From Geosiphon pyriformis uo1 (taxonomy: Eukaryota > Fungi > Glomeromycota): DNA of 64,000 nucleotides. The notes under the pieces were generated by a model that did no database searches, was not told where the DNA came from, and saw nothing but the letters and a program-made list of their open reading frames with translations. The translations under genes were made by a program, and so were the position numbers. Positions 1 through 50,254 of the stretch are shown here, piece after piece. The DNA lies in assembly GCA_016748015.1 (NCBI GenBank), contig JAAOMT010000283.1, forward strand, positions 562,108-626,107, in the 5' to 3' direction. Numbering within the stretch: the stretch's first letter is position 1; the number at the start of each line of letters is the position of its first letter.

Positions 1-537
1 ATGTTAGTTGGGTTTTGGGGATTTTTCAAGTACAATAATTAAAGAATTTGGTTTTTTGAATTATTTAATATTTATTTCTTTTTGTGTGTATAGAAATGGT
101 TTTTAAGAGATAAATCTAAAGTAAGATACATTTTCTCAAAGAGAGAAGCTCTTCTTTTATACAACTTGTTGTAACACTATTCTATGAACTTGAACTTTGC
201 TATTTTTTACAATTTCACTGAACTAAAGATATATTTCAGTGAACTGCAAGTTATTTCTGCAAACTATTAGATATTTTAGTGAACTATCAATTATTTTGGT
301 GAATTTCTACAAATTTTGGCGAACTTTTGAATGTTACATAGTTTAGGGTATTGCATGATTGATCATCACAATTAGGTTACATTTGTGTTGTGTACAAATT
401 GGGTTAATTAAATGATAATTTCGGACATTTTGCTAATGTAATAAGTAATAATTTGAAACGATAATATATGCTAATTAATGATAGGAATTATAAGATAATT
501 TCATGCTAAATAATATTTCTAATTTCATTTAGTAACA
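1..537 (-). mobile_element. Partial family-A LTR (A0), cut by the window edge, inserted in the gag of element B1
   Basis: Colinear with 2783-3312; ends ...AGTAACA at 537; no PPT next to it; followed by ACGT and gag-like sequence. Confidence 0.85.
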
Positions 538-1320
538 ACGTGCCAGGGTTTTCTCCTGGTGCTAATTTTGGTTGTTTCCTTTTGTTAATTTTCCCAATGG
601 GCTGGAGAATAACTGTTTCTTCAGAGGAAGTAGTTAATAATTTGGTCAAGAGTTGGATTGGTGGTGGTTCCCATGTTGATGTATTTCCATCTGTTTTATT
701 GATTATTAGAGTGAGATTTCCAAACAATGATCTGTATTTTCTTAATGATTTGGTTCAATTGTGTTAATCCCAGAGGTGTAGATTTCCAGGAGTTTATGGT
801 GTTTTCAACTGGGTTTTCAGGAGTGAGTTGAATACAATTCTACTTTGGAGTGTTTGATGATATAATGGAATTGTTAGAGAGAGGAATCTTGGTTTCTTGT
901 TGACTGTAGACTTGGCTTGAGCAGTTGTGAGGTTGTTGGATTTGTCTTTGTATTCCTCAGAGTTAGATTCCACTGGTTGTTGTACTTGAGGAAATTGTTT
1001 TGCCATATAATATTTAATGTTTGTGTTGATTATGCACAGAGTTTTAGTGATTGCTTAGGTAATCATGGCTGTTGGGTATCCTAATAAACTTTAATGGATT
1101 TGTTCCCCCAGTTTTCTTGTGTCAGTTGTATAGCCTAATAAACAGTCAATTTTTGCATTAATATAGTTACAAAAATCACTTTCTGCATAAGCAGTTTATG
1201 CTGGTATTCCTAGATTTTTTTAAAAGTATTGAAATAATGCTCTTCCATATGAAAAGTTGTCTTTTTTTACTGTTCCAATAGTCACAACTTTTGTGAATTT
1301 CTGGAGTACTCTGTCTTTGT
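538..1320 (-). pseudogene. gag: 5' part of gag of Gypsy element B1 (decayed)
   Basis: Fragments 794-1006 and 506-727 are homologous to B2 gag fragments 20566-21087 and 20182-20427 (QFPQVQQPVE; EETxILQPIG). Confidence 0.8.
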
Positions 1321-1349
1321 GGATTTATAATCTCACAGAAAACATCAAA

Positions 1350-2343
1350 TGTTATGGGTAAACTTGGTGGAGTATAGAAATGGTAACATTTGGTGCTCTC
1401 AATAATTGGTAATACATCTTTTGTGTAATTCCATTGGCTTAGTCTTAATTATCAGTCTCTAAAAGTCTTATCTACTGGTTGTGAATTTATCTGTTGAGTT
1501 CTTTGGTTATAAGACACAAAGTTTTGGTTCTCATTGATTGTAACTTCTTATAAAGATGAGCTTTTTTTTCTAAGCTAATGAGTGCAGTCATTAAGATCTG
1601 GTATTGTATTTTTGCCCTTCTGGTAAGTTATCAAGATAATGTTAATATCCAAAACCTAAAAAGAGCTTCTTTTTTTTACCAAACTATCACAAAGTCTATT
1701 CCCAAACAGTTAATTTTACTATGTTGCCACTCCACAAAAGAAAAATAAAAAAAAAAGAAAATAAAAAAAAAGATAAATTAGTATTGTCAATCATCATGAT
1801 CAAGAGCAATTGGTCCAAATCGTAAATAGTTCGAGGTAGTTATGCTAAGAGCATCTGTTCTAAAACGAAGATATAAATCAATGGTTAATTCATGTGAATT
1901 TCACAAAGTTTGAGAACATGAATTTATGATTCTGATTTCTTAATAATTGATTTATTTCAGAAGATAAACATAGAATATAATAAATAAAGAGATATGGATA
2001 TTTGATTCTTGTCTAGTGGTTTATATTTATCTGCTTGTCTGTTTTTATCTTCTATAACTACTTGTTTTTATACATTCTTTTGGTTTTATAGCATTGCTTT
2101 TGATTGTTTCATTATTGCTAACTATTGCTTTGTTATTTTTGTTATTGCTTTATTCTTCTACATTATTACTAGTTATTCTATGTTATAATATGTTATCTAG
2201 TGTTATTTTGTGTTATCCCACATTGTAATGCATTATCCTGTGCTATCCTAAGTTATAATGCATTATTCAATGTTATTGCATATCATCCTAAGTTATAATG
2301 TGTTATCCAACGTTATTGTGTACTATTCTGTATTATGTCACAT
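1350..2343 (-). mobile_element. 5' LTR of element B1, left piece; the remaining ~51 bp are at 28595-28645 beyond the A1 insertion
   Basis: Starts TGTTATGGG at 1350 beside a degenerate PBS (1332-1347); colinear with 5868-6949 and 21153-22250; broken at 2343 and resumes at 28595. Confidence 0.9.
2161..2340. repeat. 10-bp-period tandem repeat (consensus ~CGTTATnnnn) in family-B LTR; also at ~6705-6895 and ~22005-22195
   Basis: Units TGTTAT/CATTAT/CGTTAT/AGTTAT recur every 10 bp for about 18 units. Confidence 0.85.
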
Positions 2344-3312
2344 TGTCACCAGAGGTTTTTGGTCTCTTCTTAGCTCTTGTATGTTTGTTGTAATGCTGTT
2401 AATTCATGACTATGAGAAGTGTTTGAACCTCCGATAACTGAATTTATCTTCAAATTATCTTCTATAATTTGAACTGCTGGGCTTATAAGTGGAATGGCCA
2501 ATTCCTTGCCAGTTACTTTATGTAGTTATGTTGTAAGAAACATCAACTCTTTCTCAGGAATTGCTTGTCTGGAAGCTTACTAAAAATGTGTAGTTATTTT
2601 GCTGTAAAAGTCAATTCTTCTACAGAAATCTCATTTGTAGGCTACCCTAATGATTGTAATAAAAAAAGAAAAGAAAAATAAAAGAAATGTAAAAAAATAG
2701 GATTTTATCAAGAAAAATGTTTTCTATTCAGGCCTAGAGTTACTAACAGTTTACTGAAATTGGTAGCTAATCAATTTCAAAACGTTAGTTGGGTTTTGGG
2801 AATTTTCCAAGTACAATAATTAAAGAATTTGGTTTTTCAAATTATTTAATATTTATTTCTCTTTGTGTGTGTAAGAATGGTTCTAAGTGATAAATTTAAA
2901 GTAAAATACATTTTCTTGAAGAGAAAAGCTCTTCTTTTATACAACTTGTTGTAACACTATTCTATGAACTTGAACTTTGCTATTTTCTTTAATTTTGCTG
3001 AACTAGAGATACATTTTGGCAAACTATAAGTTATTTCTGCAAACTATTAGATATTTTGGTGAACTATCAATTATTTCGGCAAATTTCTACAAATTTTGGT
3101 GAACTTTTTGAATGTTACATAGTTCGGGATATTGCATGATTGATCATTGCAATTAGATTACATTTGTGTTATGTACAAATTGGGTTATTAATTAAATGAT
3201 AATTTCAGATATTTTGCTAATGTAATAAGTGATAATTTGAAATGCTAATTAATAATAAGAATTATAAGGGTAATTTCATGCTAAGCAATATCTCTAATTT
3301 TGTCTAGTAACA
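2344..3312 (-). repeat. A1 3' LTR
   Basis: TGTCACCAG...CTAGTAACA; adjacent PPT GAGGAGGAGGTTA on the - strand. Confidence 0.92.
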
Positions 3313-4000
3313 TAACCTCCTCCTCAAGACTGAGCTCTGTCGAAGTCCAAGTACCATCTGTAATTTCCAGATTGTAATCCAAAATTATTGAAGAAATTTG
3401 GTCTGAAAATTGTTGAAATTTCAGTTCTGTGAGCTTTCCAATGTATTGAATTTTCAAAGGTTGTAAAATTGGGTTTTGTAGGACGTTTTTACAGGTGTGG
3501 AATAGGTCATAAAATCTAAGAGCAGCTCTTAGTTTATAGTGATTGTTTGTAGATCCAGCTGTTGTTTTGAATTCATTGTGGAGTTGTTTCTGAATAGCTT
3601 CTTTTGTGAGGTTTGCTGCTGTAAGCTCCTGTTTTTGTTCGTGAAGTGTTTTTCCAATGTAGAAATATCTATATATTGGAGTATAGTCATGGTTTTCTTT
3701 ATTAAGACACAGTTAAAGTTTTTGTTGAATAATAGCATTTGGTAGAATACTAATAGGAGTGAACATTAAATTTTCTCTTAAAGCAAGCTTCAAAAGTTCT
3801 TGTAGATGAATTCCAGAATAACTTCTTGTGTTCTTTTTGTAAAGGTGATAATTTCGTAAATTTGGGGCTAAATTGGCAACTATTTTTGTTTGGGTATAAT
3901 TAATATGTTTTCCTGTAATAGTAATAGATAATTTGGGTATTGTCTTTAAAGCTAGCATTAATTTTTGAGATATTTGTTGAATATTTTGAGGGATAGTCAT
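3281..4000 (-). pseudogene. A1 ORF-X: extra 3' ORF of ~240 codons with one internal stop, unknown function
   Basis: MTIPQNIQQ...IYRYFYIGK...AALRFYDLFHTCKNVL...IGKLTELKFQQF; homologous to A2 36529-37236. Confidence 0.8.
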
Positions 4001-4134
4001 TATAAAAATTTGAGTGAGAAAATAGATTGAAATTATTTTTTGGTGTATGGATTTTTATGTTATTTTTGCTTTGTTTTTGTAAGATTGTTTCTAAATTATA
4101 AGGAGATAACTATAATAATAAATTTAAGTTAAGT

Positions 4135-5867
4135 GTTCAAGTTGGGAGGTTGTTCAATGACAACTATTGGTTCTAAATTTCAGGGAATATCTTCAGGATT
4201 GATTAAAGGGGAATGTGTACCAATTTGTGGAATTAATAGTTCAGGATTGTGTCTGGAATTATAGTGTTTTAAACAATCTCCATGTGCAATTTTTGCTAAG
4301 ATTTTGTCATCAAGTCTTAGCTTGTATGATTTGTTGTTTAAGACTTCATGGATAAAGAATGGTCTATCTCATTTATTTTCAAATTTTTCACTCCATTGTT
4401 TTTTAGCTTTAATACTATATAAGAAAACTTTGTTTCCGATTTTAAATTCATTAGTAATTAGAGGTAATTTGTTGTCATGTCATTCTTTTTGTTGAGCTTG
4501 GGAGTGTTTAATATGGATGGCTGCTATTTGTTATTTTCCTTCTAATGTGCTAAACAGAGTATAGGCTTTTTGTTGTAGTGTTTCCTGAAAGTTGTCTTTA
4601 TTAATTGGTTGTACTGGATATGTTTTTATTGTGAAACTAATTGGTAACATTGCTGTCCTTCCATAGGTTAAATCAAATAGTATGTGTTTTGTGATATCTT
4701 GTTTTAGTGTTCTATATGCTAGTAACACTGATGAAATAAAGATATCCCATTTCTGCTCAAAGTCTGTTGAGACTTTGGCTAATGATTCACACAATGTTTT
4801 GTTGAAATGTTCTACAAGTTCATTTGTTTGTGAATGGTAGAGCAAAGATAATGGTCTCTTGACATTAAATGGTCCACAAATTTCCTGGATTAAATTGTTC
4901 ACGAAATGTGTTCTTTGATCAGATAAAAGTTCTATTGGGCATCTATGTCTACAAATAATGTCTTCATAGATAAAGTTTGCTACTGATTTCGCATCTGCTT
5001 ATTGAATGGCTCTGGCTTCAGGTCATTTGGTAAGATAGTCTACAGCTACTGCAATATAACAGTTTCCTTGGTTTGTGATAGGTAGTAGTCTGACTAAATT
5101 GATACCAACTCGGTCAAAAGGCTGTTCAACTTTAATTGGGTTTAAAAGTTCTATAGAACAAGCTTCTTCTCTTCTTTGACAAATATTACAAGACTTAACG
5201 TATTTGTGAATGTCTTTTCTCATTTGAGACCAAAAGTAATATTCTAATGTTCTCTGGGTGGTGCTGTCTTTTCCTAGGTGTGCTGATGAAGAGTTTGAGT
5301 GCATGTTATATAAAATAATTTTTTTTTCATGTTCTTGTATTAATCTGAGCGGATTGTCTGGGTTTCTGAAGTTTTGATAATAAATAATGTTGTTGTGTAA
5401 GAAGTATTGTTTGGCTTGTTGTTGTAACTGATGTTTTTCATCTGGGAACCAATCTGTTGGGATTGTTAATGTCTTCAAATATTGTTTAAGATTGTTGTAG
5501 TTTTTGGGGTTTATTATCTGTTGTTTTGTTGCTGTTAATTCAAATGGGTGTTGGTTTTGTTTTCTAATCTTGTCTCATTCTTGAGAGACAATCAATGTTG
5601 GTGTGAAGTTTTCCTGGTTTGTGGTATACAATGTATTGGTAGTTGGCTAAAAATTCTGTCCATCGGGTTTGTTTTGCATTCAGTTGGGTGTTTTTGTTTT
5701 GAAGCCATTTGAGTCCAATATTATCAGTGATAATATCAAATTTTTTAGGTCTGAAATAAAAGTTGAAGTGGTGTAAGGCCCAAATTATGGCTGCTGTTTC
5801 TAGTTCTATGGCAGGGTAGTTTTTTTTGGCTGGTTTTAATGTTCTGTTAGCATAAGCAATTACTCAC
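4135..5867 (-). pseudogene. pol: A1 pol, 3' part: C-terminal RNase H and integrase (HHCC zinc finger, core, GPY/F-like), no chromodomain
   Basis: ORF pieces 5023-5478 (H..AHLG..YVKSCNICQ..VDYLTK) and 4531-4902 (YHSQTN..VEHFNKTL); VIAYA..ELET RNase H motif at ~5790-5865. Confidence 0.9.
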
Positions 5868-6949
5868 TGTTATGAGTAAACTTGGTGGGTATAGGAAATA
5901 GTAATGTTTGGTGCTCTCAATTATTGATGACGCATCTTCTGCGTAATTCTGTTGGCTTAGTCTTGATTATCAGTCTTTGAAGGTCTATTTTTGGATGTGA
6001 ATTTACCCATTGAGTTTTTTGGTTATAAGGCACAAAGTTTGTCTTTCATCAATTGCAACATTTTTCGTAAATGTGAGCTCTTTTCTCCGAGCTAACAAGC
6101 ATAGTCATTAGGATCTGGCATTGTCTTTTCGCCCTTCTGGTAAGCTAACAAGATAAAATTAATATCCAAAACTTAGGGAGAGTTTCCCTCTTTTACCAGG
6201 CTATCACAAAGTCTATTTTCAGACAGTCAATATTACTATGTTTCTGCTCCACAAAAATAAGACAGAAAAAGAAAGAAAAAGAAAAAGAAAAGAAAAGAAA
6301 AGAGAAAAAAGATAAATTAGTATCGTCAATTGCCATGATCAAGAGTGATTGGTCCAAATCGTTAATAGATTCAAGACAGTTATGCTAAGAGCATCTGTCT
6401 TAGAATAGAAGTACAAGACAAGGGTTAATTCATGTAAATTCCATGAAGTTTGAGAACATAAATTTGTGATTCTGATTTCTTTAATAATTGGTTTATTTTA
6501 GGAGATGAAAGAGAGAAGATAATAAAGAATGAAGGGGTATGGATATTTTAATTCTTGTTTAGAGGTTTGTATCTATCTGTCTGTCTTTTTTTACTTCTAC
6601 AACTACTTGCTTTTATACATTCTTTTGGTTTTACAGAATTGCTTTCAATTGTCTTGCTATCGCTAGCTATTGCTTTGTTGTTTCTGTTATTGCTTTGTTT
6701 TTCTACATTATCGCTAGTTATTCTATGTTATTACACATTATCTGATGTTATTACATGTTATTCTATGTTATCCTGTGTTATAACATGTTATTCTACATTA
6801 TTGCATGCTATTTTGTGTTATTCTGTGTTATAACACGTTATCCTACATTATAACGTATTATCCAATGTTATTGTGCATTATTCTGTATTATGTCACATTT
6901 TGGTCACATTTCTTTATAACTTTGGATTGGTTTTTCTACTCAGGTAACA
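5868..6949 (-). repeat. B2 3' LTR
   Basis: TGTTATGAG...CAGGTAACA, followed by a pyrimidine tract (PPT on the - strand). Confidence 0.9.
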
Positions 6950-6964
6950 TTATCCCTCTCTTTT

Positions 6965-7740
6965 TAAAATTAAGCTCCTATGAAACCATATGTATCTGTT
7001 ATCGTGGCTTCATTCATGTAATGTTCGATTGTTGCCTCAAGTATTGCCTTTTGTAGGTCTTTGAACTGTTGATTGGTTATTCGTCTTATATTGTTAACTG
7101 TTATGGTTTTCATAGATCCATTTAGTAGTACGTTTGGGCAATGTTAGAAGACAGCATATAGTTGGTATGCTGCTTTGTAATGTAGGGTCAGGTTGTTTTT
7201 CCCTATGAATTTTTCTACTTGTTGTATTGCTTCTTTGTTGAACATTTTTTGGCTGAGATCTTTATATGGTGTTTTCAAGTCAAGCTGTTCTTCAATTTTG
7301 TAGAACCAATAAGCTGGAGGAAGTCTTTCTTTCTATTTCTGGGCATTGTCAGATGTCCACTCCCCTGTTTTAGGGAGTTTGGTCCCACGAGCTAAAGCTT
7401 TTTTTATTTTTTCAAGCTTGGGGACCAAGTATTTTCTTTTGTAATCTTTTTCTTGTTCTTTGCCTCTTTCTTTTCCACCTTCTGCCCAAAGGCAATTTTT
7501 TTTCCAATATTGCCTTTCGAGTGGTGGGTAGGAGAGAGAATGTTTAGTTCTAATTGAACTCTCGTCCTCCCTCTCCTGCTCTTATCTTTGTACTATATCT
7601 CTTTTTTATCAATTGTTATTTCTATTTGAGATGTCAATTTTTGAATTGTTTCTGAAAGATCCATGTTGAAATTTCTATTGTTCTTGCTGCTTTTCGGATG
7701 CTATATATATTTGAATTCTCCAATTTAATTTGCTGTCCAT
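6965..7740 (-). pseudogene. B2 ORF-X (~258 codons, several stops), in frame with integrase
   Basis: Hand translation gives MDSKLNW...PPAYWFYKIEEQL...FIGKNNLTLHYKAAYQLYAVF*HCPNVLL...IRRITNQQFKDLQ, which aligns with C1 18027-18448. Confidence 0.75.
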
Positions 7741-7743
7741 TGT

Positions 7744-8475
7744 CTACGTTTTGATGATGATGATTGGTTCCAGATCTTGTGGTATATCTTCTGGTCTGAT
7801 TAATAAAATTTGTGTTCCTAGTTGAGGTACTGATAACAATGATTCCTGTTTTACATGATAAATTTTTAACCGATTTCCATGTGTTACTTTCTTTAAAATC
7901 CTGTCTTCCAATCATAATTTGTAAGCTCCATTTTCTAATGCTTTGTATATGTGGAATGGACCATCTCACTTTGGATCAAACTTTTCACTCCACTGTTTCT
8001 CAGCTTTTGTACAATGTAACAGTACTTGGTCTTCAATCTTGAATTCCATTGGTTGTTCTGATAGGTGTTTATCATGTCTTTCTTTTTGTCATTCTTGAGC
8101 ATGATTAATATTGTCAGCTGCTGTTCTTCGATTGTTTTCTAACGTTTTCATTAGCTGGTATGTTTTTTGGTATAAAGTAGCTTCAAAATTCTCTTCATTA
8201 ATTGTTTCTGTTGGGTATAATGATATTACTTGTTCAATCAGTAATGTAGCTTTTTTTTCATAGACTAGTTCGAATAGTGTGAACTGAGTCATATTTTGTT
8301 TCAATATTTGGTATGCAAAGAGTACAGAAGGTATGAATAAATTCCATTCTTGTCTGTTTTCATGACTTATTTTTGCTAGTGCTTTGCACAGTGTTTTGTT
8401 AAATCGTTTTACCAGTCCGTTCATTTGTGGGTGGTATGGTGACAATAAGGGTCTTTTTATTCCAAATTGTTGGCT
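7744..8475 (-). pseudogene. pol: B2 integrase, C-terminal half
   Basis: ORF 8089-8487 SPYHPQMNGLVKRFNKTL...; GPF motif near 7955; ends DLEPIIIIKT*. Confidence 0.85.
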
Positions 8476-9502
8476 TTTAACAACCAATTATTTCCTACTA
8501 GAGCTTGATATTGAGTAGCTTCCATGACGAGTACTTTGGTAGGGATTTGGATTCCATTAATCTTGAAGGAGAAGTTGTTAATTTCTCCTATCAGGGTTTT
8601 TGTGTTTCCATCTGCTGTAATAATCTGAGTGGTAGCAGCACAGTCTATTCAGTGACCTAGTTGGTCCATGAGCTGCTTCGTGATTATGCTACCAGCTGAT
8701 CCGCTATCCAGGATTAATTTAATGTCTATTTCTCTGATTCTGGCATTGGTGTATAAGGCCGTTATTGATTTATCTTGATTGATGGCTGCTCCACTAAAAA
8801 GACTATGGGTGTTCAAATTATTGATGTCAAAAAGAAATATGGCAGCTAGGGTGGTGTCTTCGGTAATAGTGGCTGGTGAGATATTGCTTTTTGTTTGCTT
8901 GGAAGGTTGGGAGATTCATTCTATATCCCACTCTTCCACAGGTGTAGATTTATCAAAACCCTGGTCTTTTATAAAACCAAGATAGGAAGCTTAATTTGGG
9001 TATCCAGTTGGTGTTGGTCGAGATTGGGCAGGACCATGAAGCATTGGTTGAGATGGTCCACTGTTGGTTTGCACCTGATTGTTGTTGAGATTTTTCCATC
9101 CCTGATTATAGTCTATAGCTCGAGGTCTGGACAGACTGTAAGGGGAAGTTTGATAGTAAGGGATTGTTTGTGTTATTGGTGGTGGTTGATAATAATTTTG
9201 GGGTAGTGGTTGAGTGTACGGGACTTGTTGTGCATATAGGGGTGGTTGATTCTGAGGTATAGAATATTGGGGTACTATGTTTTGCTGATATCTGGATTGC
9301 TGATATGAGTTTCCTTGATTTTGGTCTATGATCTTTTTTCTACAGTCATGGGCAATGTGTCCAGGTTTCTGGCAGTAGTAACAGTTATGGAAATCAGATC
9401 TCTAAGGTTGTTGCTGTTGCTAACAGTTTTGTTGCTGTGGGTATCTACTGTTGTTGTTATTTTCTCTCCGTTGGGGTGGTTGGTAAGTTCTTGTAGTTCT
9501 GG
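8469..9502 (-). pseudogene. B2 end of gag (CCHC knuckle, Q/N/P-rich spacer) and aspartic protease
   Basis: CYYCQKPGHIAHDC near 9345-9385; LILDSGSAG near 8690-8720; VLVMEATQYQALVGN. Confidence 0.85.
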
Positions 9503-10333: not shown

Positions 10334-10415
10334 TTTGGGGAACCCTATGAGGAAAGAAAATCAAAAAAGAAATAATAATTAGCAATAATTCATTGCTAAA
10401 AAGGAAAAAACAAAA

Positions 10416-12450: not shown

Positions 12451-12549
12451 GCCACTAAAGATAGCAGCCTCGCAGCTATTTTTCTTTTTGAATTAGAGGA
12501 AAATAAGGCTATGTTCAGTAGAGCAGCATTGAACGAAAAATGCCCAATC

Positions 12550-12900: not shown

Positions 12901-13104
12901 AAAATTCCAGCCACCTGTGACCACTTCCAAAAACCCAGCGCCAACCAAAGATCTACCTTCGAATTTGAGGAAAATCCAGCACTACCAGCCATCGAAACCT
13001 ATTAGCTCTCTTGGGCTGATGACCAAAGAACAGGACTACCAGCCATACCAACGTGGACCAGCGAAGAAAAATTTGAATGGAACCACCAGCGATGCAGACC
13101 AAAG

Positions 13105-16099: not shown

Positions 16100-16164
16100 A
16101 AATTACCAACCCACCCACCACAACAACAATAAACAACCACCTTTATAAAAACCTCAGCCAATAC

Positions 16165-19669: not shown

Positions 19670-19673
19670 CCGG

Positions 19674-27620: not shown

Positions 27621-28590
27621 TGTTATCAAAAGTTTTTGGTCTCTTCTTAGTTTTTGTATGTTTGTTGTAATGCTGTTAATTCATGACTATGGGAAGTGTT
27701 TGAATCTCCGATAACTGAATTTATTTTCAAATTATCTCCTATAATTTGAACTGCTGGGCTTATAAGTAGAATGACCAATTTCTTGCCAGTTACTTTATGT
27801 AATTACATTGTAGGAAATGTCAATTCTTTTTCAGGAATTGCTTGTCTGGAAGCTTACTAAAAATGTGTAGTTACTTTGCTGTGAAAGTCAACTTTTCTAC
27901 AGAAATCTCGTCTGTAGGCTACCCTAATAATTGTAATAAGAAAAGAAAAAAAAAATAAAATAAATGTAAAAAAAATAGGATTTTATCAAGGAAAACCTTT
28001 TCTATCCAGGCCTGGAGTCACTAACAGTTTACTGAAATTAGTAGCTAATCAATTTCAAAACGTTAATTGGGTTTTGGGGATTTTCCAAGTGCAATAATTA
28101 AAGAATTTGGTTTTTCAAATTATTTGATATTTATTTCTCTTTGTGTGTATAGGAATAGTTTTAAGTGATAAATCTAAAGTAAGATACATTTTCTCGAAGA
28201 GAGAAGCTCTTTTTTTATACAACTTGTTGTAACACTATTCTATAAACTTGAACTTAGCTATTTTCTTTAATTTTACTGAACTAGAGATACATTTCGGCAA
28301 ACTATAAGTTATTTCTGCAAACTATTAGATATTTCAGTGAACTATCAATTATTTTGGCAAATTTCTACAAATTTTGGTGAACTTTTTAAATGTTACATAG
28401 TTCAGGGTATTGCATGATTGATCATCGCAATTAGGTTACATTTGTGTTATGTACAAATTGGGTTATTAATTAAATGATAATTTCGAATATTTTGCTAATG
28501 TAATAAGTGATAATTTGAAATGCTAATTAATGATAAGAATTATAAGGGTAATTTCATGCTAAGCAATATCTTTAATTTTGTCTGGTAACA
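27621..28590 (-). repeat. A1 5' LTR
   Basis: Colinear with 2344-3312; differences seen are mostly C/T and G/A. Confidence 0.92.
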
Positions 28591-35553: not shown

Positions 35554-36528
35554 TGTTATCAGAGGTTTCTGGTCTCTTTTCTTGAATGTTGCAAATGTCT
35601 GTTGGTTGCAAATTTACGTTTTCTAGAAGTAGTTGAACCTTTAGTAACTGAATTTATCTTCAAATTATCTCTTATAATTTGAACTGCTGGGCTTATAAGT
35701 GGAATAGCCAATTCTTTGCCAGTTACTTTATGTAGTTATGTTGTAGTAAATGTCAACTCTTTCCCAGGAATTGCTCATCTGGAAGCTCACTAAAAATGTG
35801 TAGTTACTTTGCTGTGAAAGTCAACTCTTCTACAGGAATCTCATCTGTAGACTACCCTATTGATTATAATAAGAAAATAAAAGAAAAGTAAAAGAAATAT
35901 AAAAGAAATTGAATTCTGTCAAGGAAAACGTTTTCTATTCGGCCTGGAGTTACTAACAGTTTACTGAAATTGGTAGCTAATCAATTTCAAAATGTTAATT
36001 GGGTTTTTGGGGATTTTTCAAGTGCAATAATTTAAAGAATTTTGGTTTTTTGAATTATTTGATATTTATTTCTTTTTTTTGTGTATAGGAATGGTTCTAA
36101 GTGATAAATCTAAAGTAAGATACATTTTCTTAAAGAGAAAAGCTCTTCTTTTATACAACTTGTTGTAGTACTAGTCTATGGACTTGCACTTTTTTTTTTT
36201 GCTTAAATTTCGGCAAACTAAAGATACATTTTAATGAACTACAAGTTATTTTGCTGAACTATTGATTAATTTGGATGAATTATTCATAATTTCGGCGAAT
36301 TTCTTATAAATTTTGGCGAATTTCTGTAAATTTCGGCGAATTTTAGAATGTTACAAAGTTCAGGGTATTGTGTAATTTGATCATTCTACTTTCTGTCATA
36401 CTAATTGTATTATTTAATTGAATCGTGATATGTGATAATTGAATAAATAATAAGTGATAATTTGAAATGATATTAATATACTAATTAATTTATAGAAATT
36501 ATAAGGATAATTTCATGCTAATTGATAG

Positions 36529-37236
36529 CTAAAATTCTACTGGTAACATAATCTCCTTCTCAAGACTAAACTCCATTAAAGTCCAAGCATTATCTATGAT
36601 ATTGAGATAATGATCCAAAATAATTGAAGTAATCTGGTCTGAAAATTGTTGAAATTTCAGTTCTGTGAGTTTGCCAATGTATTAAATTTTCATTGGTTGT
36701 AGTATTGGATTTTGTAGAACATTTTCACAAGTATTAAACAAATCATAAAGTCTAAAAGCTGCTCTAAATTTGTAGCAAGTGTTTGTTGGTTCAGCTGCTG
36801 TTTTAAATTCATTGTAAATTTGTTTTTGTATAGCTTCAGGAGTGAAATTTGTTGCTTCAAGTTCCAGTTTTCGTTCATAAAGTGTCTTTCCAATGTGAAA
36901 GTATTTATAGATAGGGGTGTGTTTATTGTTCTGTTTATTGAGAAGTAGTAGAAGTTTTTGTTGCATTGTAGCATTTGGTGAAATGTCAATAAGAGCAATT
37001 AAAAGATTTTCTTTCAGTGCTTGCTTTAAAAGTCTTGATAACCTATTTTCAGAGTGACTTCTTGTTTTTCTTTTATAAAGGTGATAGTTCTGTGGATGAT
37101 TTACTACTGGGACTGTGGTTTTTTTCTGAATGTAATTAATTTGACTTTCATTAATTGTTATAGATAAGTCAGAAAGTGTTTTCAAGACTAACATTAACTT
37201 TTGGGATATTTGTTGAATATTTCGAAGAATAATCAT
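36529..37236 (-). pseudogene. A2 ORF-X (~236 codons, one internal stop at 36682)
   Basis: ORF 36682-37236 MIILRNIQQ...IYKYFHIGK...RAAFRLYDLFNTCENVL, continuing YIGKLTELKFQQF. Confidence 0.82.
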
Positions 37237-37384
37237 GATAAAATTGACTAATTATGAAAAGAGAAAATAAAAAAAAATTATTTTTGGGTATGGGGTTTTT
37301 ATTTGTTTTTGGGTTTGGGTGTTTTTTTTTGTAATTATTTACTATTTTTGTCTTTGTGTTTTTATTAAAAATTATTGTAAAATT

Positions 37385-40300
37385 TAAGTGTTCAAGTTTG
37401 GTTGTTGTTCTATTATAATTATTGGTTCTAAATTTCGGAGAATATCTTCAAGATTAATTAAAGAGAAATGTGTACCAATTTGTGAAATTAATGGTTCAGG
37501 ATTGTTTCTGGAATAATAGTGTTTCAATTTATCTCCATGTGCAACTTTTGATAGTATCTTGTTATCAAGTCTTAATTTGTATGATCTATTGCCTAGAATT
37601 TCGTGAATATAAAATGGTTCATCTTATTTATGTTCAAATTTTCTACTCTATTGTTTTTCAGCCCTAGTTCTGTATAAGAGAACCTTATTTCCCACTTTAA
37701 ATTCGTTGGTTATGGGTGGTAATTTGTTGTTATGTTTTTTTTTTTGTTGAGCTTGGAAATGTTCAATATGAGTTGCTGCTATTCTTCTTTTTTCTTCCAG
37801 TGTACTAAGAAGAATGTAGGCCCTTTTTTGGAGTGTTTCTTGAAAGTTTTCTTCATTAATTGGTTGTACAGAGTATATTTCCACTGTGAAATTAATTGGT
37901 AATGTTGCTGTCCTTCCATAAGTTAAATCAAATGGTGTGTGTTTCATAGTATCTTGTTTTAGTGTTTTGTATGCTAGTAACACTAACGGAATAAAGATAT
38001 CCCATTCCTGCTCAAAGTCTGTTGAGACTTTGGTTAGAGATTCACGCAATGTTCTGTTAAAACATTCTACAAGTCCATTTGTTTGAGGGTGATAAGATAA
38101 TGATAAAGGTCTTTTGACATTGAATTGTTTACAAATTTTTTGTATTAAATTGTTTACAAAATGTGTTCTTTGATCAGATAAAAGTTTAATTGGACATCCA
38201 TGCCTACAAATAATGTCTTCATAGATGAAATTTGCTACTGATTTTGCATCTGTTCTTTGGATGGTTCTAGCTTCAGGCCATTTGGTAAGATAATCTACTG
38301 CTACTACAATATAGCGATTTCCTTGGGTTGTGATAGATAATGGTCTGACTAAATCAATTCTAACTCTGTCAAAAGATTGTCCAACTTTAATTGGATTTAA
38401 AGATTCTGTGGGGCAAGTTTCTTCTCTTCTTTGACAACTATTACAAGATTCTACATATTGTTAAATATCTTTTTGTATGTGAGGCCAAAAATAATGTTCA
38501 AGAGTTCTTTGAATTGTTCCATTTTTTCCCAAGTGTGCTAAAAACGGATCTGTGTACATGTTATATAAAATTGTTTCTTTTTCATTCTCTTGTACTAATC
38601 TGAGTGGTTGGTTTGGGTTTCTGTGATTTTTATAATAAATTTTGTTGTGGTGTATGAAATATTGCTTTGATTGGTATTGTAAACAATGTTTTTTACTTGA
38701 AGACCAATTCTCTGGCATGGTAAGAGTCTCCAAATAGTTTTTAAGATTGCTGTAGTTTCTGGAATCTATTGTTGTTTGGTTATTTTGTTGGTAGGTTGGT
38801 AAGTTATGGTGGAATTGTTGTTGGTATTAGTCTTGTCTCATTTTTGAAAGGCTATCAACATTGGTGTGTAGTTTTCCTGGTTTGTGATATACAATGTATC
38901 TGTAGTCTACTAAGAAGTTATTCCATTAAGACTGTTTGGCACTTTGTTTAGTTTTCTTTTTATTAAGTCATTTGAGGCCAATATTGTCAGTTATTATGTC
39001 AAATTCTTTTCTATTCTTTAGGTATTGTTGAAAATGTTTAAGAGCCCAGATGACTGCAGTGGCTTCCAATTCAGTTGAGCCATATTTGAGTTCTGTTGGC
39101 TTGAGTGTTCTGCTGGCATAGGTGATAACTTATTTCTGGCCATTTTCATCCAATTGTGATAAAATGGCACCAAATGCTATGTGTGAAGCATTAGTGGCTA
39201 ATTGGAACTGTTTGTTGAAGTCTGGATAAACAAGAACTGGGGCTGTTGTCAATTTTGTTTTGAGAGTTTCAAAGCTTTTTGTTGTTCTTCAGTCTATTTG
39301 AATGGCACGTTTTTGTTGGTAAGATAATTGAGTAGTTTGGCAATTTCTGAGAATCTTTTTATGAATTTTCGATAGTAAGAGGCTAATCCTACAAATCCTC
39401 ATAGTTCTGTGGTATTTCTGTAGGTTTGAAAGTTTTTGACAGCACTGATTGTTCCTGGATTTGGTTTGACTCCATCTTTACTAACTATGTGTCCAAGAAA
39501 AATCAAGCTTGTTTTTCCAAAGTGACATTTTTCAATGTTTAACTTTAATCCTGCTTTCCGTAATTGTTGAAAAACTTTTTGCAGGTGAATAAAATGGGCT
39601 TCAAAGCTTGATGAGTATATATTAGTATCATCAAGATAGACAACTACTGATTACCACAAGAGCCCTTCATATACAACATCCATAAGTCACTGAAATGTTG
39701 CTGGTGCATTACAAAGTTCAAAAAGCATAACATTGAACTCATAGTTTCCTCCTTAGATGGTAAATGCTGTTTTGGATTGGTTTTTTGGGTCCATTTTGAC
39801 TTGCCAGTATCCACTTTCCAAGTCTAAAGTTGAGAAGAACTTGGCTTTTCCTAGAGCATCTAGCATGTCATCAATTCTTGAAAGTGAGTAAGCATCTCCA
39901 ATTGTCACACTGTTTAATTGGTGATAGTCAACACAAAATCTGATTTTTCTATTTTTTTTTTTGACAAGGACTACTGGTGAGGCCCAAAGACTTCTTGATG
40001 GTAGAATCAATCCATTATTGAGCATTTTCTAAACTTCTTCTCTGATGAATTGGTGGCTGACAGGTGGCACTCTGTAAGCTTGCTGACGTTTTGGTGGAGC
40101 ATCTCCTGTATGGATCTGATGTTAAACAATATCTATTTTTCCCAAGTTATTGTTGTCTTTTGCAAATATATCTGCAAATTCAGCTATCAATTGTTTTAAT
40201 TGTCTTTGTTGTTGAAGTTCTAAGGGACCCATGTTGATTTGAGAGAGTTTTTCTTCCAAAAAGTGGTAGTTTTCAGTAGTAAGAATGATATTTGGATTTG

Positions 40301-43290
40301 GGAGTAGAGTGTGCCTTACAATTTCGATAAAATTAGAAACAATTTGAGGGTTTTCATCTTGAAAAATATTGCTGTGTATGATTCCAATCTCTAATTTGTT
40401 TAATAAGACAATAAGATAATTATTGGGATTGTAGAATGTAACTCAAAAATTTTTCATTTCTTTGAGAATATAAACATTTGGAATTGAGATTTCATGCTTC
40501 AAACAGATTTGTTCATTGAATTCAAAGATTTGTTAGGTAGTGGTGAGTTTTGAGCAAGTGTAAATTTCGTGATATTCTTCAAAAAGTGAAATAGTAATTG
40601 GTTGGGGAAGTTGAAGAATCTGGTGAGATTCATTTTGTATTTTAAGGGCTATGTTTACTGGAACTGTAAATCGTCCAGTTGAACCAAAACTTTGCATTCC
40701 TCTTTCACTTTTTTCCAATTGTTCTCTGTTGTTAACTGATTGTAACCCCAAAATGTTGATTAGGAGTAGATAAATTGCTTGAGCAATTTTTTCAGCATGT
40801 TCAATCTTGAATGGTTTGTCTGTTTCATTCTGCAACATGATAGTAATGTCTCCAGTGTATTTTGTATCTATAACTCCTTTTTTAATATTGATTCCTTTGC
40901 TTGCCAATGATGATCTGGATGCAATTTGAACCATTGCTCCAGGTGGAATTTCAAAAGCAATTTTGAGATTGATTTTTGTCAAAGACTTTGGTTGAAGAAC
41001 CAAAGTATCTTTTCTTGGGTATCTTAGATCATATCCAGCATCAATTTTGTGTGCTTTTTCTGGTCTGATTTTTTGGCCATGATTGTCGAAATATTTAAGT
41101 TGTAGAGATGGTTGCTTTTTAAGAAGATAAATAGAGGTGGTTGGTAGTTCTTCTATCAGTTCAGATACTCCAAATTCGATTTTATTTTCATTATTTTCTT
41201 TTGGCAGAAGAATGCTAAGAGCATAGCATTCTGGACACTATTTGTCATCACAAGGCATGATGTATTCTTCACACAATTGAATGTTCATTTGCTTTATTCA
41301 TTGAATTTGAGCTTTTTGAGTTGGATATGTGTAACTTGCAATTTGGTGGTAGGTTTTTACTTCATCTTCATAATCAAATCCAGCTAATTCCATGGTATAC
41401 TCAATGTATTCAGCTTCTTTCATTTGGCGGACATCTTCTTGAGTGGTTCCATTGATTAATGCCATTGCTAAGTCAAAAATCATTTCAGCATCATAAGGGT
41501 AGTGGTAAAGTTTATTGAGAGCATTGTTGTATGCTGCATTAAATGGTGTTTCTCTTCTAACTTTTTCTGAAATTGATAGAGCATATTGACAGGTTTGATC
41601 ACATACTCCTCCTCTCATTGCAACATCAATCCAGTTGCATTCTTCTGGTAACATATCTCCACATGTAAGGCAAGGTGTGTTGTTCCATTTTCCACTTTTT
41701 TTTGGAGATCCAAATCATTTTCTATGGCATGCTTTGCAAAAGTAACAGGTACAAGTTTCATATTCCTCTTCTGGAAAAATACATGTTCCCATTGATGAAA
41801 GTTTCTTGTTGCAATCTTTGCATTTGAGTAGAATATAGTGTGGTTGTTTCTGTGGTTCTGGTGTAGAATATCTAACTTTCTTCTATCTTCTTGATTCTTC
41901 AAAAATCTTCTGTTTTGTTTCTTCAGCCCAATTGGATGTTAATCCAAGAGCCATGTAGGTTTCAGTAAGTGGCATTTCTTTCTCCTCTTCAAATTCAAAT
42001 ACTGGGGCTTTTTTTAATTGTTTGTTAAAAGTACCACAAGTAGCAGATACTATGGTGTATTGTTTTTGGTATAAAATTTTTAATTCCTGAGTTTCCCAGT
42101 CCAAGTTTGCATTGGCCTTAAGAAGCCAATTATTTCCGACCAGAGCTTGGTATTGGAGTGCATTCATGACTAGAACTTTGACTGGAATGGTGATTCCATC
42201 AATGGTGAATAAAAAATTGTTAATTTCTCTTACTGGTGTCTTTTTTATACCATCTGCTGTAACAATTACAGTTTGGGCTGGTCTGTTAACAGTGTTACGA
42301 GATGGTTTTCTTGTTATATTTAATTGCTGATATCCCGCTTTAATTGCAATCAGTTTTTCGTGAGTTCCTCAATTCTATTTGTGTAATAATGTCACTGTTA
42401 CACTGAAGGCTTTCTTTTTACTGTTGCGATGTAAGTTATTCTTTAATTCTTGATTGTTGTGTGTGTTTATGTACTCCTTCTCAGAGGCTGAACTGAAATC
42501 TACCCACTGTCTGGGGTCTTCTCTGAGGATATCCTTGCAATTGCCTGATGTGTTTTTCTAATCTAGAAACACAGAATGTTAATGGTCTTTAGCGCTTTTC
42601 TAATTCTCACAATAAAGCTNNNNNNNNNNNNNNNNNNNNNNNNNNNNNNNNNNNNNNNNNNNNNNNNNNNNNNNNNNNNNNNNNNNNNNNNNNNNNNNNN
42701 NNNNNNNNNNNNNNNNNNNNNNNNNNNNNNNNNNNNNNNNNNNNNNNNNNNNNNNNNNNNNNNNNNNNNNNNNNNNNNNNNNNNNNNNNNNNNNNNNNNN
42801 NNNNNNNNNNNNNNNNNNNNGTTTCTTGGGATATTTAATTTGAAAGTATGATTTAAAGTGGAGTTTGTTGGATAAAATTGGATCTATTGCTTGATAAGTT
42901 ATGATTTTTATTACTTGATTGATTCTTTCCCAATATTAAAACTACTGTATATATACATGTTTGTAGTTCTACGAGAAAATACTTTCTTTTTGATATTTCA
43001 ACCTGGTGCTTGCTGCTATTACCAGTTGGTGTTGGCTGCTATTGTGAACTGGTGCTTGCCACTATCGCGAGATGGTGTTTGCTACTATGTTAATCATTAC
43101 CTTTCTAAGATTATTACTGTGCTATATTATGATTAAATAGTTTGTATTATTTTTATGATTCTTTTTGCTAAATTCTTAAACCGTAACAACAGTTCTTTGA
43201 AGCTGTTGCATTAACTGGTAGGTGATAATACTTTTAGCTGATCCACTGTCTAAAATTAGTCAGATGAGTTTTTCTTCTATTGTAACTTCA
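37385..43290 (-). pseudogene. pol: A2 pol: protease, Cys-rich domain, dUTPase (~40680-41100), RT, RNase H, integrase
   Basis: ORFs 41298-41654, 40533-41003 (ASRSS, GVIDTKY, KIAQ, RGMQSFGSTG), 39753-40025 (RFCVDY), YLDD near 39630, 38461-38733 and 37648-38049. Confidence 0.93.
42293..43188 (-). mobile_element. Solo family-C LTR inserted in the A2 protease
   Basis: Reverse complement of the C1 LTR; TSD ACAG at 42289-42292 and 43189-43192; the 201-bp N gap inside leaves a collapsed full element possible. Confidence 0.8.
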
Positions 43291-43399
43291 GTATACATGG
43301 CAGTGATAGCTCTTTGTTCATTAGCTGCTGCATTATTAAGCAAGAATGGTAATTCATTTGCTTCAAATTCGAATGAGAATATATCTGAAAGATTGGCAT

Positions 43400-45350
43400 T
43401 TTGGGCAATTTAAGCTGGTGGAATAGTGTTGTTGAAAGAGTTTGATCTGGGTGCTGCAACTTCACCTTCAAAAAGTGCAGATTGTTGAAAATCTGATTTC
43501 TCTGATATTGTAAGATAACTGGGTTGAGTGTGATAGTGATTGGGTCTTTGCTGACTAGAATTTTGGGGAACCAACTGGTTATTTGGATTAATTCTGTTGT
43601 TGTTACTCTGAAATTGATTTTGGGATGTGAATTGATTATGTTGAACCAATCTTCTTGCTGGTACTTGATATTGTTGAGTGGATGGTGTCTGATATAGCTG
43701 AATTGGTAAAGGTTGCTGATATTGTTGCTACATTGGTTGTGGTGTTGGTAGATAGTAACTGTTTTGATTTTGTGGTCTTGATGAATAATAGGTTGGTGGT
43801 GGAGATTGGTAATAAGATTGTTGTAGTGAAGAATAACGTTAATTACTCCTATTTTGTTGGTTTCTTTGCAATTTTCTGCAATCTCGTTTCCAATGTTTTG
43901 GAATTCTACAATAATGACAATATTGAGATTGGTTGTTGGATGATGATCCAAAATTGTTTTGGTTGCATCATTATGAGGGTTGGTATTTTTGTGGTTGTTG
44001 CTGTTGTTGTTGTTGGTTTGTAAAGTAGCTTTCAACTTTTTTTGTGAGTTGGTCTATCTTTTCTTCAGCTGTTGAGCTGGTTTCTCCAATTGCAAGATTT
44101 ACAAGCTTGGTATGATTTGCTTTTTTCATTGCCATTTCATAGCTCTTTGTATGTCTAATAGCAGTTGCTAAGTCTGTTGGAGCATGTGGGCAGACTTTCT
44201 TAATCAGTTTGTCTTTTAACTCTGCTATAAACTAGTCCAGAATCTGAGCATCAGAATAATAATCATTGGTTTCCAATTGTCGAATCCATCAAAGAAGTTT
44301 GTTGAATCTTCCAAGATAGGTCATGACAGTTTCAGATGTTTCTTGTTTGATATTGCAAAAGCAATTGTAGAGAGTAATAGAAGTGTTGTTGTTAGTAAAT
44401 TGTTGTAAGAAAGCATCTTTGAATGCTTGCCAGTTTTCAAATAGTTCTTCTAAATTTTCAAACCATTTTTCTGCTGTTCTTTGGAGAAAGTAAGGAATTG
44501 CTTTGAGCATTCTTGTTGCAATTCAACCATTTGTATCTTCTGCTTTTTGAACTTTGTTAAGCCATTCTTGAGGACTGGTATTATTGTCTTTACTAGTGAA
44601 TTCTGGAATTTTTGCAATTTAAGCAGTTGCCATTTCTTCTTTGTTTTTTGTGATTTCTTCTGGTACTGATTCAGTTTCTTTACTTTCCAAGCTTTCTGAA
44701 TAATTACTTTCGTTTTTCTGTAAGTAATCAATAATATTGGCACTTGTTGATATTAGTTCTTGTTGTTGAATAGGATTTCTAGGTGACTGAAAATCTTCTG
44801 GTCTGGAGAAATGGTTAAGTAGTAAACTTGGTGTTTGTGATTGAACAAGTGAAATTAGAAATGGTGTAATAGAAAGTGGTAATTTGACACTGGTTTCTTG
44901 TTCAGGTATTTGCAAGTGTTTGGCAGTTGTCTTTTGTAGTGTTGGAGTGTTTGGAGTGGTTTTTGAGTATTGCTTCAATCTTTGTTTGCCTTTGTTGCTT
45001 GTTTCTGTCTCTGATTCAAAATCAAAAGAGTATTTAAACTGTACTGGGTATTTTTCTTCACAATATTCAATAATGTTAAAATTAAGTTCTTGGAAGTAGG
45101 TAGCAAGTGTTTCACTGTTCAGGTCTTCTGTTTCCAATTGTGAATAGTGCACTAAATTATTGTAAAGGTTGCTTCTAATTTCTGAAATGTTGTAGTTTCC
45201 AAAAAGATAATTGTTAATGCAGTTTTCAATGTATTGGTATACTGATTTCTTGATAACTTCAATTTCGTCTGGGATGTTGAATCTTTGCCTGCAGTGAGTG
45301 TAAATTAACTGGTAATACTCTAGAGTTGTTGTGTTTGGTGTGGTTGCCAC
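43400..45350 (-). pseudogene. gag: A2 gag
   Basis: ORFs 44619-45350 and 44289-44510; decayed CCHC near 43870-43915; Q/N-rich tail. Confidence 0.88.
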
Positions 45351-46049
45351 TTTGAAGTTGTTTTTGCTGTGTTGTTTCCATGGGAGAGCACCAAATGTTA
45401 CCAGAGATTTCTAGTCTCTTTTCTTGAATGTTGCAAATGTTTATTGGTTGCAAATTCACGTTTTCTAGAAGTAGTTGAGCCTCCAGTAACTGAATTTATC
45501 TTCAAATTATCTCTTATAATTTGAACTGCTGGGCTTATAAGTGGAATGGCCAATTCCTTGCCAGTTACTTTATGTAGTTATGTTGTAGTAAATGTCAACT
45601 CTTTCCCAGGAATTGCTCATCTGGAAGCTCACTAAAAATGTGTAGTTACTTTGCTGTGAAAGTCAACTCTTCTACAGGAATCTCATCTGTAGACTACCCT
45701 ATTGATTATAATAAGAAAATAAAAGAAAAGTAAAAGAAATATAAAAGAAATTGAATTCTGTCAAGGAAAACGTTTTCTATCTAGGTCTGAAGTCACTAAC
45801 AGTTTACTGAAATTGGTAGCTAATCAATTTCAAAATGTTAATTGGGTTTTTGGGGATTTTCCAAGTGCAATAATTTAAAAAATTTTGGTTTTTTGAATTA
45901 TTTGATATTTATTTCTTTTTTTTGTGTGTAGGAATGGTTCTAAGTGATAAATCTAAAGTAAGATACATTTTCTTGAAGAGAAAAGCTCTTCATTTATACA
46001 ACTTGTTGTAGTACTAGTCTATAGACTTGCACTTTTTCTCTTTGCTCAA

Positions 46050-46205
46050 ATTTCAGCAAACTAAAGATACATTTTGATAAACTACAAGTTATTTCGCTGA
46101 ACTATTGATTAATTTGGGTGAACTATTTATAATTTCGGTGAATTTCTATAAATTTCGGCGAATTTCTTATAAATTTCGGCGAATTTCTGTAAATTTCGGC
46201 GAATT
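46050..46205. repeat. ~20-bp-period repeats of quasi-palindromic TTCGGCGAA in the family-A LTR
   Basis: 8 units here, 7 at 36207-36342; decayed copies at ~210-325, ~2990-3105 and ~28270-28385. Confidence 0.85.
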
Positions 46206-46759
46206 TTAGAATGTTACAAAGTTCAGGGTATTGTGTAATTTGATCATCCTACTTTCTGTCATACTAATTGGATTATTTAATTAAATCGTAATATGTGATA
46301 ATTGATTAAATAATAAGTGATAATTTGAAATGATATTAATATACTAATTAATTTATAGAAATTATAAGGATAATTTCATGCTAATTGATAGCTAAAATTC
46401 TACTGGTAACACCAGTAAAAGTATTAGCTATAATAATATCTATACTAAGTTTTTTGGTTTTTTTGTTAATATTTCTGTAGATAAATATGAGTAAATAATA
46501 ATTTTTTTAATATTAAAACAAAACTTTATACTAATTTTTTTATTACTAAATTTTTAACAAAAAAAACTGTTAATTTTAAAATAATAAAAAAGTTAATATT
46601 AACAAAAATACTTATTAAAATAAAGAAATAAAAGAGCATAAAATAAAAAAGTTTGTTAAAAATCTTATATTTTTACTATAGTAAAAAAAATTATAAAAAA
46701 AATTTTTTTTTCTAAGTTTAATATTTTTTTTAATTATAATATTTAATTATATTTATAAA

Positions 46760-48499: not shown

Positions 48500-50254
48500 A
48501 TTTTAAAAACTAAAAATAATAAACTAAAAATAATAAACAGTATTTTTAAAAATATAACCAAAAAAATATTACTTTACATAATTTAAAAAGCTTAATAAAA
48601 ATATAAAATAATAAGTTTTAAACTGTAAATAAAAATAAAATAATAAAAACTAATATAATTCAAACCAAAACATATAAAATTTCTATACCAAAAATATTTT
48701 TTCTCATTATTTTATTTTTAATATTTAGTTATTTTATCATGATTATTTTTCGAAACATTTAACAGTTATTTCAAAAGTTAATAGTAGTATTAAAAATACT
48801 TCCTAACTTATCTATAACAATTAACAGAAATTAAATTAATTATATTCAGAAAGAAACTACAGCTTCAATAATAAAAAAATCACAAAGCTATTATTTTTAT
48901 TAAAAAAACACAAAAAATTATTTTGGAAGTCATCTACCAAAACTTTAAAGCAAACTTTAAAAAAACACATTTTATTTATCTTATCAATATTTTACTAAAC
49001 ATTATAATTCAACAAAAACTTTAATTGTGTTTTAATAAACAAAACAATGATTATATTTTTATTTATTAATATTTTTACATTGAAAAAACACTTTATAAAC
49101 AAAAATTGAAACTTGAAGCAATAAACTTTACTTCTAAAATAATACAAAAACAAATTTACAATGAATTCAAAACAATAGCTAAACCAACAAACATTCATTA
49201 TAAACTTAGAGCAGCTTTTAAACTTTATGAGTTATTTAATACTTGTAAAAATGTTTTACAAAATCCAATACTTTAATTATTAAAAATTCAATATATTGAA
49301 AAGCTCACAGAACTAAAATTTCAACAATTTTCAAAACAAATTACATCAATAATTTTAGACTATTATTTAGAAATTAAAGATAGTACTTAAATTATAATAA
49401 AGCTCAGTCTTAAAAAAAAGATTATATTACCAATAGAAATTTGAGATATTATTTAGCATAAAATTTTTCTTATAATTCCTATTATTAATTAATATATATT
49501 ATTATTAAATTATCTAAATTACTATTCAATTAATAACTTAATTTGTACGAATACACAAATTGTAATGATTAGATCACACAATATTTTAAACTATATAACA
49601 TTCAAAAATTTGCTAAAATTTGTAAAAATTTGTAAAAATAATTAATAGTTTATCAAAATATTTAATAATTCATAAAAATAACTTGTAATTTGCCAAAATG
49701 TATTTTTAGTTCAGTAAAATAATAGCAAAGAGAAAAAATGCAAGTTTATAGACTAGTATTACAAAAAGTTATATAAAAAAAGAGTTTTTTTTTCGAAAAA
49801 ATATATCTCAACTAGAATTATCTTTATTAAAAATATCTTCCTTAGTATCTATATAAATTACTTTAATAAAAACTATATTGAAAAACAACAAAATTATAAT
49901 CATTTCGCTTAAAATTTTCTGAATTCTAACTAATGTTTTGAAATTGATTAGCTTCTAATTTCAGTAATTTATTAATAATGTCAGATCTAAATAAAAAACA
50001 ATTTTTCTAACAAAATTTTTTTTATTTTACTTTTTTTTATTTTCGTTTTTTTTTTAAATATACATTAAGATAGCCTACAAACAAAATTCTTGTAAAAAAG
50101 TTAACTTTTACAGCAAAGTAATTACATATTTTTAGTAAGCTTTTAGACAAGCATTTTCTGAAAAAAATTTGACTTTTACTGTAAAGTAACTATACAAGTA
50201 ATTAATATAGAATTGGTTATTCTACTTATAAATTCAGTAGTTTAAATTATAAGA
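48500..50254 (+). mobile_element. Very decayed 3' fragment of a family-A element (A3): spacer, ORF-X from 48739, PPT relic, truncated LTR from ~49425
   Basis: ATGATTATTTTTCGAAACATT.. and AAGCTCACAGAACTAAAATTTCAACAA match A ORF-X; 49425-50254 is colinear with the reverse complement of the A LTR. Confidence 0.8.

Follow-up and report, generated by a model that had tools for sequence, protein, structure and literature searches.

A third gene kept by purifying selection in Ty3/Gypsy retrotransposons of Geosiphon pyriformis

Accessory genes of LTR retrotransposons

Gag and pol are generally considered sufficient for an LTR retrotransposon. An extra sense ORF located after pol and before the 3' LTR is a known kind of gene, and ORF-X, the ORF described here, fits it: it was separate, had the same sense as pol and was conserved among copies. 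The plant aORF-3S or env-like ORFs have the same position and orientation, are likewise retained in the majority of a family's copies and have, according to their description, an unsettled function; they are often transmembrane and env-like, whereas ORF-X was a fungal, predictedly soluble protein with no Pfam match over the cut-off (PMC7264820). Some plant aORF products have been described as nuclear or DNA-binding (PMC7264820; PMC11963269). The TRP28 ORFs of the plant element Retand, in contrast, are reported to be antisense and plant-specific and to contain a Transposase_28 domain (PMC11963269), which was returned by no scan of ORF-X.

Two animal systems were also close. In bdelloid rotifers, dUTPase-bearing Gypsy-like lineages carry a non-envelope ORF3 that is common to several families, as in our case. 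The rotifer proteins are described as GDSL esterases, DEDDy exonucleases or membrane proteins (PMC5408684), whereas none of these domains was present in the Pfam scans of ORF-X and no catalytic motif was evident. CERV of the Caenorhabditis elegans element Cer1 is an accessory protein made from a spliced mRNA of this nematode LTR retrotransposon, and it is reported to act on the RNA of its own element inside the nucleus (PMC10309623). It can be considered a functional model for ORF-X only, since it was likened by its description and not by sequence or structure. No description of the ORF-X protein family was found in the literature that was covered in part, and repeat libraries or supplements may contain one. 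ORF-X was real and under selection, and as a protein family it was apparently undescribed.

Nested elements and their ORF-X copies

We analysed 64,000 nucleotides of G. pyriformis uo1 (contig JAAOMT010000283.1 of assembly GCA_016748015.1, positions 562,108 to 626,107), and this whole stretch is called the window below. Self-comparison and inspection of flanks indicated that its content was nested, decayed LTR retrotransposons, with a nesting depth of three (Table 1). A3 was a worn remnant of a family A element. The LTR termini were TGT...ACA, and the 4-bp target duplications were exact in A1 (ATGT), A2 (CTGG) and the solo LTR, had one change in C1 and were degraded in B. The carriers of ORF-X possessed a PBS-like TGG site and a PPT. 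Ty3_capsid, Retrotrans_gag, RVT_1, RT_RNaseH and rve were found by Pfam over the cut-off, the protease was slightly under it, and a dUTPase was found as well. The coordinates gave the domain order gag-PR-RT-RH-INT, and the full order in C1 was 5' LTR, pre-gag ORF, gag, protease, Cys-rich insert, dUTPase, RT-RNase H, integrase, ORF-X and 3' LTR. The carriers are Ty3/Gypsy LTR retrotransposons. A dUTPase between protease and RT has already been described for fungal Gypsy elements (PMC2864245), and the reported share of LTR sequence in the Geosiphon genome is 41% (PMC11952901).

Table 1. Features of the window (positions in the window unless another locus is named)
Feature	Position	Strand	Remarks
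Family A LTR part	1-537
Second family B piece	559-2344	-	5' LTR and pre-gag ORF; ~79% identical to 20361-22200; abuts A1
Element A1	2344-28590	-	3' LTR 2344..3312; 5' LTR 27621..28590
ORF-X of A1	3281..4000	-	239 codons; one internal stop, 3713-3715
Spacer, integrase stop to ORF-X, A1	4001..4135	-	2% G, ATG-free
Decayed A1 integrase	4136..5574	-	upstream of ORF-X
Element B	5868-22250		inserted into RNase H region of A1
LTRs of element B	5868..6951	-	3' LTR; partner 21153-22250; 11% diverged
ORF-X of B2	6964..7664	-	short deletion, frameshift near 7570, internal stops; start most likely at 7664
Element C1	9503..19669	+	nested within B
ORF-X of C1	18005..18448	+	3' two thirds, stop-free
RT fragment	28646-28987	-	fourth lineage
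Element A2	35554..46411	-	LTRs 35554-36548 and 45396-46411
ORF-X of A2	36529..37236	-	235 codons; one internal stop, 36682-36684
Family C solo LTR	42292-43188		sits inside A2
ORF-X of A3	48739..49453	+	heavily decayed: frameshift, 7 stops over two segments, 18% GC
Pre-PPT motif	3290-3340, 6950-6985	-
Pre-PPT motif	18430-18470	+
Pre-PPT motif, locus L002	3090-3125
PBS-like sites	27590-27620, 45365-45395, 21122-21152	-	after 5' LTRs
PBS-like site	10334-10360	+	after 5' LTR
Pre-gag ORF	10389-11135	+
Pre-gag ORFs	20569-21135, 44901-45410, 27126-27635	-
Cys/His-rich insert	13006-13596	+
Cys/His-rich inserts	24461-25075, 41343-41828	-
Duplications in C1	16161-17983, 18371-18983		98-100% identical, beside N runs
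Probable host gene	55826-57112	+	Ser/Thr/Asn-rich protein, likely single membrane segment
Probable host gene	61071-62549	+	F-box/LRR protein

The LTR pairs were 7% diverged in A1 and 3.7% in A2, and the differences within LTR pairs were nearly all transitions (65:3, 33:4, 119:2 and 21:2). The observed/expected ratio of CpG was 0.19 in A1, 0.53 in C1 and 0.78 in the gene-bearing flank. Both the CpG depletion and the transition decay were in line with the methylation and small-RNA silencing of TEs that have been documented in a relative, R. irregularis (PMC8647823).

Several further features of the elements were observed. The RT fragment just beyond the 5' LTR of A1 was 41-42% identical to the RTs of families A and C. 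The duplications in C1 looked like assembly artefacts and, together with the N runs, hid the 5' part of the C1 ORF-X. The PBS-like sites of families A and B presumably resemble the 3' end of elongator methionine tRNA, and the C site differs. Families A, B and C had a pre-gag ORF, placed between PBS and gag; its N-terminal parts were 27-30% identical across families (E ~1e-5) and had no Pfam match over the cut-off, and it may be an N-terminal extension of gag or a further accessory gene. A Cys/His-rich insert of ~200 codons was found between protease and dUTPase in C1, A1 and A2, where it was 33-43% identical; it had no Pfam match and was possibly a zinc-binding domain.

All five ORFs proposed in the initial annotation were present, in the sense of pol and between the end of integrase and the PPT. 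Their complete copies had been given as ~235-260 codons, which held for the lengths in A1 and A2, but no copy in the window was both complete and unbroken. The A1 copy was 92% identical to the protein P0102. The 5' part of the C1 copy was lost to an assembly gap (N at 17984-18003), and over 142 aa this copy was 94% identical to P0126. The B2 ORF was also in place, but the ATG at 7664 was its most likely start rather than the proposed 7740, because that frame matched the family B N-terminus of P0132 at 27 of 29 residues. Its first 31 codons lay in another frame and, after an apparent 11-codon deletion, had a 93% match to the family N-terminus; the frameshift followed.

At the 3' end, ORF-X of family A crossed the PPT into the 3' LTR, and those of B and C terminated just before the PPT. 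The spacer upstream of ORF-X contained 2-4% G and had no ATG in A1 and A2; in A1 it was likely a 5' leader or promoter. Immediately before the PPT lay a short DNA motif that was conserved in all families and in the metagenomic locus L002, and the two ORF-X clades translated it in different frames (both described below). This motif was likely a cis signal for plus-strand priming.

Conservation, selection and reach of the family

The families had been described as sharing a ~95-aa core in spite of unrelated LTRs. Self-blastn gave no match between LTRs of different families, and all three pairwise alignments of the cores were significant: 29% identity over 105 aa for A and C (pairwise E 3e-11), 25% over 114 aa for A and B (6e-8) and 37% over 118 aa for C and B (5e-29). 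The core was therefore homologous across the families, but the conservation was not confined to it and reached the N-terminus. The predicted loss of glycines in B2 was borne out, since relatives from family B kept G where B2 had E or R. The cores were 24-37% identical between families, in comparison to 48-61% for the C-terminal half of integrase (with four out-of-frame A1 integrase rows excluded). Faster divergence of ORF-X fits a protein in conflict with the host and fits weak constraint equally well.

Between A1 and A2, dN/dS of ORF-X was 0.22 over 233 codons (bootstrap 0.13-0.35) and 0.16 in the core, and that of integrase was 0.21 over 155 codons. The differences at codon positions 1, 2 and 3 numbered 57, 44 and 85, and the other two frames of ORF-X contained 13-25 stops. 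A transition-rich spectrum lowers dN/dS by itself; therefore, neutral evolution was simulated with the mutation spectrum of the LTRs. The simulation was approximate since it started at the present-day copies. It gave a median dN/dS of 0.51-0.52 and a minimum of 0.27, and none of the 600 runs was at or below 0.224; the median number of new stops was 8-9 versus one observed per copy. For C1 versus B2, dS was saturated. Moreover, 50 of 124 collected proteins aligned as uninterrupted full-length family A copies; these were known from gene models alone, and G. pyriformis gene models within repeats are often chimeric. ORF-X is a protein-coding third gene kept by purifying selection, as the initial annotation had supposed, with a dN/dS far from 1.

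The first protein search returned 147 matches among 222 candidates, and the 120 listed were all hypothetical proteins of G. pyriformis. The copies in the window were 84-94% identical to the best-matching G. pyriformis protein (83-84% for the B2 core). Thus, the suggested resemblance to repetitive Glomeromycotina proteins existed, but these were mostly the ORF-X family itself in the form of G. pyriformis gene models. In the ESM Atlas, P0157 had a 0.94 match to a Mucoromycota cluster with a recognition value below the reliable level, and no usable match was returned for the C1 ORF-X. This cluster may be the ORF-X family itself, and the weak single match was the sole hint of a wider fungal family.

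A profile of four cores searched against 1.84 billion representatives gave 65 matches at E <=0.001. Among the 20 that were looked up, 18 came from G. pyriformis, the only named species, and two were metagenome proteins. The profile matches added Geosiphon lineages D and E and two metagenomic lineages (P0157/P0183 and P0162/P0184), so that ORF-X was conserved over at least seven lineages. The metagenomic locus L002 contained RT, RNase H, integrase, a G-poor spacer of 316 bases, an intact ORF-X, a PPT and an LTR-type start; this layout was the same as in family A, and its pol carried two stops. Another metagenomic locus, L003, had a different ORF of 137 codons directly upstream of ORF-X (398-811, plus strand), for which no Pfam match was found. 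In a tree of 28 core rows (midpoint root, with long-branch warnings), family A and the metagenomic lineages split from B, C, D and E with support 99/98. This split agreed with the 3' ends, as the first group read through the PPT into the LTR and the second stopped just before it. No match to ORF-X was found by tblastn in plasmids or phages, and a viral-contig candidate was rejected because the single locus returned was antisense to an unrelated gene.

Protein architecture and possible function

Three conserved parts could be distinguished in ORF-X: an N-terminal module, a linker with a PY motif and a helical core. The N-terminal module of ~40 residues was recovered by leave-one-out profiles in all six lineages tested (0 of 999 shuffles in each), and it was modelled with low confidence as a helix and two strands forming a beta hairpin. 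The motif R/K/H-x(2-5)-PY was present in five of the six lineages (it was missing in D) and was kept in 26 of 50 full-length family A copies. It lay in a predicted unstructured stretch (residues 30-64, pLDDT <50) of a linker that was otherwise unalignable. The published consensus for nuclear localisation signals of the PY type is R/H/K-X2-5-PY (PMC2408616), and the motif of ORF-X appears by sequence to be such a signal in an unstructured stretch.

The core of the L002 protein was modelled with eight helices (pLDDT 92, pTM 0.86), and the family A model had the same helix pattern. N92, L103, F107 and L114 and the basic positions K78, K90, R/K98 and R102 (model numbering) were conserved over eight representative rows, and one conserved core helix read T/N-N-x5-R/K-A-x2-R-L-Y. 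The highest 19-residue Kyte-Doolittle mean was 0.53-1.18 in seven of seven proteins, which indicated no transmembrane anchor, and there was no hydrophobic N-terminal stretch. The earlier expectation of a soluble, mostly helical product agreed with these values and with the all-helical core model, and ORF-X was not a classical Env because it had no membrane segment. The proteins were not strongly basic overall (pI 7.1-9.6; P0001 had 24 basic and 24 acidic residues).

Searches for a known family or fold returned no characterised Gypsy domain in Pfam, PDB or fold comparisons. No Pfam match was over the curated cut-off, DUF3102 appeared in no Pfam scan, the best PHROGs match (E 0.0007, to a family of unknown function) was not over the cut-off, and the best E-values against PDB sequences were 0.36 and 0.63. 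Foldseek gave no match at E 0.001 or better against PDB for both models or against BFVD for the full-length model. In a VIA-align comparison with 48,161 chains, the best Z was 5.1 (full model) and 4.5 (core), values that indicate neither a known nor a new fold. Its weak rows contained several helical DNA-binding domains tied with unrelated folds; the same applied to the ParB/Spo0J type, with Spo0J 1vz0 at Z 4.4 (rmsd 5.1, 91 aligned) and SopB and ParB at Z 3.1-3.2.

A loose resemblance to DUF1016_N (PF17761) had been noticed from the sequence. This was indeed the most frequent weak Pfam match (9 of 68 alignment members, E 0.012-0.5), but its best score of 17.9 bits was below the curated cut-off of 32.8. 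Comparison by hhalign with 11 N-termini of the YhcG family gave a probability of 19-24% and E ~1e-3 over 59-61 columns, above all 60 block shuffles, with reversed and C-terminal controls at 0.2%. Since the family was picked after the fact, from a scan of 24,736 families, the similarity stays a lead. Both domains are helical, and a Y-x-x-I-G helix and the two helices after it aligned over ~60 columns; these are the same three helices that hold the conserved N92, basic and hydrophobic core residues. However, the alignment covered under half of either domain, ORF-X lacked the PD-(D/E)XK nuclease domain that follows, and scans of C, B and metagenomic proteins did not show the signal. DUF1016_N, the N-terminal domain of YhcG, is described as having no known function (PMC1189080).

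We tentatively propose, as the most likely reading but one open to much doubt, that ORF-X is a soluble, helical nuclear protein that binds the DNA or RNA of its own element and raises its expression against host silencing. It would be the third gene of a dUTPase-bearing Ty3/Gypsy clade, kept by purifying selection. Because the spacer was G-poor and ATG-free in A1 and A2, the protein might be translated by way of this spacer, from a short RNA that is either its own or spliced. The PY motif would allow nuclear import by karyopherin beta2/Kap104, and the conserved basic helix would contact nucleic acid. If the protein acted in trans, broken copies could ride along. Binding to LTR DNA, as a trans-activator or anti-silencing factor, would be favoured over RNA binding, and the pressure answered would be host silencing, of which the CpG depletion and nearly transition-only decay would be the visible trace. 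Against a nuclear regulator stand the overall charge, the loss of the PY motif in lineage D and in nearly half of the family A copies, the low DUF1016_N signal and a fast divergence that weak constraint would also explain.

The Env position, solubility and fast divergence between families could point to the cytoplasm, where ORF-X might suppress RNA silencing, or move or stabilise particles in the shared cytoplasm of many-nucleus hyphae and so do the spreading job of Env without a membrane. The small-RNA silencing of TEs in R. irregularis (PMC8647823) and the RNA-acting ORF3s described in other LTR elements (PMC5408684) are in favour of such a role. We consider it unlikely, since it leaves a conserved motif of the nuclear-import type in an otherwise unalignable linker unexplained. 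Somewhat less probable again is a helper of integration that travels with the pre-integration complex and delivers this complex into nuclei or directs it to chromatin, substituting for a chromodomain. The conserved PY motif and the three-deep nesting would suit this role. So would the end of the integrase, where an SH3-like domain is followed by a short tail; Pfam listed no chromodomain (A2 integrase ORF and P0050). However, ORF-X is separate behind a spacer and not fused to integrase, and nesting is expected anyway in a genome with the LTR share reported for Geosiphon (PMC11952901).

ORF-X might also be a captured passenger, or an ORF that arose by chance in AT-rich DNA, and have no role for the element. 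This would account for the broken or incomplete state of all copies in the window and for the chimeric gene models, but it is very improbable given a dN/dS that matched integrase and was lower than in every neutral run, conservation over the lineages listed above and an intact copy in L002. A divergent envelope or fusion protein has position and length on its side and is hardly credible in view of the low hydropathy maximum of all seven proteins, the globular helical model and the lack of a hydrophobic N-terminus.

The proposed nuclear role also has a bolder form, which we regard as doubtful. ORF-X would then counteract silencing in the nucleus in a sequence-specific manner and have a helical fold for which no structure has been solved. 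Through it, one Gypsy clade would have evaded CpG methylation and come to occupy about two fifths of the Geosiphon genome, and the fast divergence of the protein would track the LTR of each family. Plant VANC proteins and retroviral trans-activators would be its counterparts.

That at least seven lineages have kept a third gene, constrained about as strongly as integrase, indicates a need that gag and pol leave unmet. In practical terms, well over a hundred 'hypothetical proteins' of G. pyriformis are explained as retrotransposon genes, and the ORF-X core is a compact, well-modelled domain for structure determination. A helper gene common to these Gypsy families is a candidate reason for their spread in Geosiphon. 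If the counter-silencing reading is true, ORF-X would give access to epigenetic control in fungi for which hardly any genetic tools exist.
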